Assembly (NCBI RefSeq): GCF_003334305.1
Contig: NZ_QOWS01000077.1
Source of the DNA: Escherichia coli
Lineage (GTDB): Bacteria > Pseudomonadota > Gammaproteobacteria > Enterobacterales > Enterobacteriaceae
DNA: 420 nt
Direction: 5' to 3' (one strand)
Shown here: in pieces, positions 1 through 420 of the stretch
Numbering within the stretch: the stretch's first letter is position 1
Layout: each line of letters starts with the position of its first letter
The notes under the pieces: model-generated
The model's input: the letters and a program-made list of their open reading frames with translations, nothing else
Database searches by the model: none
What the model was told of the DNA's origin: nothing
Program-made: the position numbers and the translations under genes

Positions 1-420
1 TCCGGGTGCAGTTCCGGGTCCGGCAGCCGGTTTCCTGCCGGGTCCGTCGCATACGGGATATCGATATCCAGGTTCGCCGCCGTGGTGTGGACGCCCGTCA
101 GCCTTCCCGTGTCACTGTAACGGTACTCCCGGCTCTCCTGCGGGCCGCTGATGCGGATTAGCTGTCCGTTGTCGTTCCAGTCGTAGTCCCGGTCAAGCTG
201 CGGGAGGTTCAGGTGCCTGCTCTGTAGCTGCCCTGTGAGGGTGTATGTGCTGGTCAGTTCATATGCTGCATTACTGCCTGCCATGCTGCCGAAGCTGCGC
301 ACCGTCTCACGGTGCAGCCGGTCCCGCGTGTACTCGACCAGCGGTGTTCCGCCCAGCTTCATCCCCGCAAGATAACCGCTGCCATACGTCAGCCACTCCA
401 CCGGCGGCAGACCGTCCGGC
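1..420 (-). CDS. rhs: Rhs-family (rearrangement hotspot) YD-repeat protein, conserved core region; internal fragment, partial at both ends (gene continues beyond both window edges). Paralog not assignable from this window.
   Basis: Seen in sequence: the minus-strand frame with codons at + 419..417 down to 5..3 is open for all 139 codons, while the other five frames each have stops (for example + strand TAA 118-120, TGA 149-151, TAG 159-161 and 184-186). The translation carries YD-repeat-like motifs (DRDYDWNDNGQLIRISG, REYRYSDTGRLTG, LVEYTRDRLHRETVRSFG) that fit the Rhs/YD consensus of conserved Y-x-Y-D followed by G-x-L and a downstream G. GC3 is about 78% by hand count, consistent with genuine coding in this frame. 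Established knowledge: enterobacterial Rhs cores are GC-rich and built from such repeats. No database search was run. Confidence 0.88.

Follow-up and report, generated by a model that had tools for sequence, protein, structure and literature searches.

An internal minus-strand segment of an Escherichia coli Rhs core gene, predicted to encode six consecutive YD-shell beta-hairpins

The window, by which we mean the whole 420-nucleotide stretch of DNA analysed here, lies in the interior of a well-known E. coli Rhs toxin-shell gene on the minus strand and is an unremarkable part of it. With a probability of about 0.96 it represents a segment of the Rhs core that contributes six consecutive beta-hairpins to the YD shell. 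Gene identity, repeat register and periodicity were observed, and the fold is that of a predicted model. E. coli Rhs YD repeats have been described since about 1990, and the shell formed by such repeats, those of E. coli included, is already known biology. The importance of the assignment beyond correct annotation is therefore slight; several Rhs cocoons have already been solved. A sequence-only reading of the window had proposed three motifs and a weaker fourth one as repeat units of a Rhs/teneurin-type shell. Our analysis partly confirms this observation: the peptides are real, their coordinates are essentially right, and the statistics firmly back two of the four motifs. The results support the interpretation of these motifs as YD-repeat beta-hairpins of the Rhs shell.

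Coding strand and gene identity

Minus-strand frame 2 (first codon + 419-417) is open without a stop over all 420 bases, and each of the remaining five frames contains 2-6 stop codons. The translation of the open frame, PDGLPPVEWLTYGSGYLAGMKLGGTPLVEYTRDRLHRETVRSFG...DRDYDWNDNGQLIRISG...REYRYSDTGRLTG..., contains all four peptides that had been picked out by eye. The coding feature is given below.

3..419, minus strand: open reading frame over the whole window, residues 798-936 of the 1421-aa RHS element core protein WP_001745227.1 (NZ_CP025916.1); stop-free, with 100% DNA identity to the annotated RHS core CDS, and matching NF041261 as a fragment alone (profile positions 794-931, 274.9 bits, E 1.4e-81)

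The CDS holding the window in NZ_CP025916.1 comprises 4266 nt on the minus strand. Its full-length product matched the equivalog model NF041261 (RHS_core) with 2639.7 bits, protein residues 1-1261 covering profile positions 1-1261 of 1261, compared with a curated cut-off of 2000 bits for the whole-protein score. In the full protein, TIGR01643 (YD repeat) reached 173.1 bits and TIGR03696 (Rhs-associated core) matched residues 1184-1261. Pfam placed DUF6531 at 49-126, RHS_repeat between 328 and 969 (12 domains at E<=0.001) and RHS (PF03527) at 1158-1193. Together with the 21-residue period and the structural model described below, the NF041261 match and the 12 Pfam domains support the assignment to the Rhs/teneurin-type shell family made in the sequence-only reading.

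Matches to the window were found in 3656 of 5426 complete E. coli genomes, and many chromosomes are 100% identical to it. The median copy number is two per genome (range 1-5). The same 420 bases occur at an identity of at least 99% in 284 records, and most further copies are 80-95% identical. Among the matches listed, 19 of 20 are annotated as 'RHS element core protein' and one as 'RHS repeat-associated core domain-containing protein'. The gene belongs to the same family and species as the known E. coli Rhs core proteins (RhsA-H; clade I rhs, PMC2935791; NF041261), with which it shares the end-to-end equivalog match, the G+C-rich core, the AT-rich tip and the downstream dsORF-h1. No substantive difference from these proteins was apparent, and the window gene is one allele among many. 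A frameshifted RHS core is present in the same locus as the matched copy. Since Rhs core fragments and frameshifted copies are common and 284 records agree at this level of identity, the source copy of the window could be a pseudogene.

Two open reading frames on the + strand, at + 6-161 and + 235-375 (51 and 46 aa), were dismissed as antisense to the strongly supported Rhs CDS; most likely they are spurious, a product of the high G+C content. A search of the window for Rfam families gave no match.

Repeat units and periodicity

The classic YD consensus is GxxxRYxYDxxGRL(I/T), and the units of the window gene follow it. Mapping the translation back onto the DNA, we found the coordinates of the three principal motifs to be exact: LVEYTRDRLHRETVRSFG at + 288-341, DRDYDWNDNGQLIRISG at + 144-194 and REYRYSDTGRLTG at + 93-131. 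The weaker peptide WLTYGSGYLAGMKLGG is likewise present, though its span had been given one codon short (351-395 for + 348-395). Because the coding strand is the minus strand, the '+' attached to these motifs can only refer to + strand coordinates, and is valid in that sense alone.

The equivalents of the YD tyrosine are protein residues 809, 829, 856, 878, 898 and 922, corresponding to spacings of 20, 27, 22, 20 and 24 residues between the six hairpins of the window. The three principal motifs, described earlier as regularly spaced, lie at 829, 878 and 898 and are thus 49 and 20 residues apart, i.e. about two periods and one period, because the unit YTLTGQL (Y856, between the first and second motifs) had been overlooked. 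Regularity is restored with the missed units, the other being YATDPAGNRL at + 24-53, outside the range considered in that reading. In the full protein, the matrix scan described below gave unit spacings of mostly 20-23 residues.

Periodicity was measured as BLOSUM62 autocorrelation against shuffled sequences. Shell residues 320-1030 gave z 6.2 at lag 21 and z 5.6 at lag 42, with weaker signals at 62-65 (95th percentile of the shuffle maximum 3.17), and the window alone peaked at lag 20 with z 4.3 (3.44). The control regions, the N-terminal 300 and the C-terminal 222 residues, showed no peak. The full protein hence displays the tandem periodicity of about 21 residues on whose presence the sequence-only reading had made itself dependent.

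The Pfam model RHS_repeat (PF05593), which spans two units in 38 columns, matched the 139-residue fragment at window residues 81-114 (27.3 bits, E 4.7e-6). TIGR01643 matched residues 81-115 with 15.9 bits, a marginal pass of its cut-off of 15.8. Both profiles place one two-unit repeat, which covers only DRDYDWNDNGQL and REYRYSDTGRL, belonging to the second and third of the listed motifs; the profile alignment proposed earlier as a check thus bears out half of them. At LVEYTRDRLHRE and WLTYGSGYL (protein 806-841) no RHS_repeat match was obtained at E<=10 in scans of the fragment and of the full-length protein, since these two are too divergent for Pfam and TIGRFAM. We assign them as probable divergent units, rescued only by the family alignment and the predicted structure.

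An iterative HMMER search with a model of the 21-residue unit took only every second or third unit, because neighbouring repeats were merged or suppressed, and was abandoned. An ungapped 17-column position matrix was used instead. It was trained on 25 units outside the window, so that the window was scored held out, and was scanned at every residue with 2000 shuffled windows as control. The scores in the window, with the first aromatic residue in protein numbering, are as follows.

REYRYSDTGRL, 896: 17.1, reached in 0 of 2000 shuffled windows
DRDYDWNDNGQL, 876: 3.8, family-wise p 0.04
YELTSTYTLTGQLQ, 854, not listed previously: 3.2, per-position p 0.0004, family-wise p 0.05
LVEYTRDRLHRE, 827: 0.8, per-position p 0.0014, family-wise p 0.13
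IPYATDPAGNRL, 920, not listed previously: -2.0, per-position p 0.003
WLTYGSGYL, 811: -8.3, p 0.02, not significant

As the best score in a wrong frame (+3) amounts to 1.7, sequence statistics alone carry only two canonical units of the four motifs. Reading motifs by eye evidently finds the canonical units only: it passed over two of the six hairpins, and of the four motifs it did list, two escape the public repeat profiles.

Predicted structure and the six hairpins

An AlphaFold2 model computed from the family alignment had a mean pLDDT of 84.3 and a pTM of 0.76. Protein residues 300-1081 are predicted as 54% strand and 1% helix, with strands of 5-8 residues connected mostly by five-residue turns. 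Within the window the pLDDT is 83-91 except for the loop at about 840-849 (64; model block 741-750 for residues 841-849) and the last ten residues (71). The turns are GSG 810-812, DRLHR 830-834, TLTGQ 857-861, NDNGQ 879-883, SDTGR 899-903 and DPAGN 923-927. The assignment of the following features, in protein order, refers to this predicted, not to a solved, structure.

354..401, minus strand: hairpin 1, protein 804-819; strand VEWLTY, three-residue turn GSG, strand YLAGMKL; the weak unit of the sequence-only reading
291..347, minus strand: hairpin 2, protein 822-840; strand TPLVEYTR, turn DRLHR, strand ETVRSF; contains the first listed motif, LVEYTRDRLHRETVRSFG
264..290, minus strand: connecting loop GSMAGSNAA, protein 841-849; longer than in most homologues
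210..263, minus strand: hairpin 3, protein 850-867; strand YELTSTY, turn TLTGQ, strand LQSRHL; previously unlisted
147..191, minus strand: hairpin 4, protein 874-888; strand RDYDW, turn NDNGQ, strand LIRIS; corresponds to DRDYDWNDNGQLIRISG
78..137, minus strand: hairpin 5, protein 892-911; strand ESREYRY, turn SDTGR, strand LTGVHTTA; corresponds to REYRYSDTGRLTG
24..71, minus strand: hairpin 6, protein 914-929; strand LDIDIP, then YAT-DPAGN-RL; outside the range read previously

All motifs listed previously fall on a strand-turn-strand element of the model with the turn at the D-x-x-G-R position. In its predicted secondary structure hairpin 1 is YD-like, with a turn shorter than the usual five residues; Y809, G810 and G812 are at least 90% conserved in 35 homologues, and YGSGHL is conserved in four solved Rhs proteins. 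Hairpin 2 is modelled in register with a five-residue turn and may be described as a YD unit in which R replaces Y and H replaces G. Its residues R829, D830, L832, H833, R834, E835 and R838 are conserved to at least 90%, and RDxLHRE aligns in Tse5, RhsA, 8qja and Tse15. Most rows of the alignment have a gap in place of the loop that follows, which is kept in the closest E. coli-type relatives. Hairpin 3, in register in the model, is a degenerate unit: the homologue consensus at this place is YD..GRL, which at 856 has drifted to YTLTGQL in E. coli. Hairpins 4 and 5 are the first and second halves of the Pfam RHS_repeat match (protein 878-911) and of the TIGR01643 match; both are in register in the model, and hairpin 5 is the most canonical unit of the window. 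In hairpin 6, D923, A925 and N927 are at least 90% conserved, and among all columns of the family alignment only G926 does not vary at all. Four solved Rhs proteins share the aligned motif Y.YDaaGN, and in the model bridges at T922 and R928 flank a five-residue turn.

Over the whole protein, 27 of 30 matrix-defined units are modelled as strand, five-residue turn and strand in register, including all five placed in the window. This matches the turn rule published for Tse5, whose shell is described as 40 hairpins with the consensus YDXXGRLV and DXXGR as the turn, D and R being often replaced and Y, which faces the cavity, being often H, R, W or F (PMC10684867). A consensus YDxxGRL(I/T) is likewise given in PMC4436062.

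A Foldseek search of the PDB returned Tse5 (8cp6) first, with E 9e-86 and TM 0.77/0.83, followed by 8qja, RhsA 7q97 (TM 0.74/0.81), Tse15, S. bongori Rhs, 7pq5 and RhsP, and then by teneurins and TcB/TcC. The predicted model is accordingly a spiral of beta-hairpins that can be overlaid on the solved Rhs cocoons, as the earlier reading had anticipated. The model further contains an insert of five helices, which separates the last strands of the shell from the RHS plug at the C terminus (model 983-1046, protein 1082-1145, L001 8376-8567).

Conserved variant motifs

A search of 1.84 billion representative proteins yielded 132,243 relatives at E<=0.001. Residues 100-1261 were aligned with 34 of them (31-96% identical), 31 of which had been picked for a collinear span of the window. 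The consensus of the window reads WLTYGSGHL.G..LGG..L..F.RD.LHRET.R.FG ... YD..GRL ... R.Y.YD..GQL..I ... Y.YD..GRL ... Y..DPAGNRLP. The two motifs missed by the profiles are conserved variants, F/Y-x-R-D-x-L-H-R-E and Y-G-S-G-H-L, the latter with the shorter turn, and the same residues align in the four solved Rhs proteins Tse5, RhsA, 8qja and Tse15. Near-invariant residues in the homologues are YGSG (809-812), RD.LHRE..R (829-838) and D.AGN (923-927), located at window + 354-401, 291-347 and 24-53, respectively.

These data raise the question of whether WLTYGSGYL and RDRLHRE are generic YD repeats or a family-specific block with its own role in the shell, such as a seam or a contact to plug or cargo. 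Both motifs are near-invariant where ordinary units vary, they lack a RHS_repeat profile match, and one has its turn cut to GSG while the other carries H for G. Furthermore, 16 of the 32 columns conserved to at least 90% lie in the window, which makes up 12% of the aligned length; this conservation is possibly inflated, because spanning the window was a criterion in choosing the rows. Against a separate block stands the model, which gives both motifs the canonical strand-turn-strand geometry and register. A second G-to-H unit, YHYDSQHRL at residue 986, occurs elsewhere in the shell and shows the same predicted hairpin geometry, and the Tse5 structure report notes frequent substitution at these positions with the hairpin kept (PMC10684867). 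We regard a family-specific block as doubtful; it would in any case supplement the YD-repeat reading, not replace it. In this homologue set the block YGSGHL...RDxLHRE...DPAGN, which occupies much of the window, shows the highest conservation of the Rhs shell. Somewhat less probable still is the broader proposal that it forms a specialised structural or functional element rather than belonging to six interchangeable repeats. A role of this block as, for example, a seam between shell layers or a contact to a plug or to the enclosed toxin is similarly speculative. The stretch with its unusually conserved variant hairpins may be of use to Rhs-shell structural biologists, for whom coordinates already exist.

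Chance resemblance and DNA-level repeats

Motifs of this kind might be a chance resemblance in a G+C-rich open frame without any real repeat. Such a view could draw on the low held-out matrix scores of three of the four listed motifs (3.8, 0.8 and -8.3), set beside the value attained in the wrong frame, and on the single two-unit repeat placed in the window by public profiles. It is incompatible with the score of REYRYSDTGRL, which shuffled windows never met, with the Pfam and RHS_core E values, the latter obtained over the whole window, and with the conservation of all motifs in homologues of 31-47% identity and their in-register hairpins in the model. Chance resemblance is excluded.

The periodicity could alternatively originate from repeats at the DNA level, acting as recombination substrates of a 'rearrangement hot spot', instead of from a constraint on the protein. 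Rhs elements first came to light because their copies recombine unequally, and the window is indeed found one to five times per genome. That recombination takes place between whole paralogous cores, however, not between YD units. Within the window, searches for tandem, direct and inverted DNA repeats gave none, and the period exists only in the translation. This explanation is excluded as well.

Proposed function and related shells

In the shell architecture proposed here, a unit of about 21 residues would begin with a strand whose last residue, the Y of YD, is aromatic or bulky; a tight D-x-x-G-R turn would then lead into the return strand, which starts with L. Each further hairpin would join the same antiparallel sheet, whose spiral closes into a cocoon. 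By analogy with homologues, the cocoon would enclose the variable C-terminal toxin, here an AT-rich tip with HEFAH (PMC10684867, PMC11461821 and PMC4436062). The toxin would probably be released via the aspartyl-protease motif at the end of the core, and a type VI secretion system would carry the assembly on its VgrG spike into neighbouring bacteria; in the matched genome, vgrG is found upstream. The small downstream dsORF-h1 would be the immunity protein, again as judged from homologous systems.

The closest solved relatives are the homologous T6SS shells Tse5 of P. aeruginosa (8cp6) and RhsA of P. protegens (7q97), found with E 3e-121 and 2e-91. The window is collinear with Tse5 residues 695-829, and YGxGHL, RDxLHRE and YxYDaaGN are common to both proteins. 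Identity in the structural alignment is 30% for Tse5 and 25% for RhsA, and the N-terminal regions and toxins differ: the Tse5 toxin is pore-forming, whereas the E. coli tip is HExxH-like. The E. coli protein also has the longer 841-849 loop and, in the model, the helical insert at 1082-1145.

In the teneurin YD shell and the TcB/TcC cocoons, YD hairpins form a spiral of the same architecture (Foldseek E 1e-35 to 1e-31), and teneurin-like proteins and YenC2 also match the E. coli Rhs protein in sequence. TM values to teneurins and Tc toxins are only 0.3-0.5, at 10-16% identity, and the E. coli protein is a bacterial single-chain Rhs without the extracellular domains of teneurins and without a TcB partner. 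Assignment to the teneurins was therefore rejected, the Pfam family TEN_YD-shell (PF25023) not being significant either (E 1.7, 7.1 and 0.11); the architecture is shared, but the protein is not a member.

C-terminal tip and genomic locus

The features of an Rhs polymorphic toxin were all found outside the window: the TIGR03696 and PF03527 matches, a 27-residue aspartyl-protease cleavage motif at protein 1235-1261, at the end of the core, and the tip. Cleavage at this motif is predicted. A literal search with the pattern PxxxxDPxGL gave no match, and the longer motif DP(I/L)G...D(P/S)xG(L/W) was matched. The tip comprises residues 1262-1421 (160 aa), is AT-rich, carries HEFAH and matches Peptidase_M91 weakly (E 0.0098). 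A GC-rich core with an AT-rich tip is a composition known for Rhs elements; here the core has 60-68% GC, and the tip and the downstream region about 34%. The tip and dsORF-h1 (L001 7545-8027 and 7084-7533) form a putative metallopeptidase toxin/immunity pair. NCBIfam gave no match for dsORF-h1, the DUF3969 gene and the neighbouring hypothetical gene, nor did PADLOC for the toxin tip and dsORF-h1.

The order of the locus is vgrG, a frameshifted RHS core with dsORF-e4, IS remnants, two small ORFs, the RHS core with dsORF-h1, an ISAs1 pseudogene and pptA. Two tandem Rhs elements are thus located behind a single vgrG (L001 11891-18420, L002 607-6767), the upstream core being the frameshifted one. 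Remnants of IS1 and ISAs1 separate it from the intact core that bears the window.
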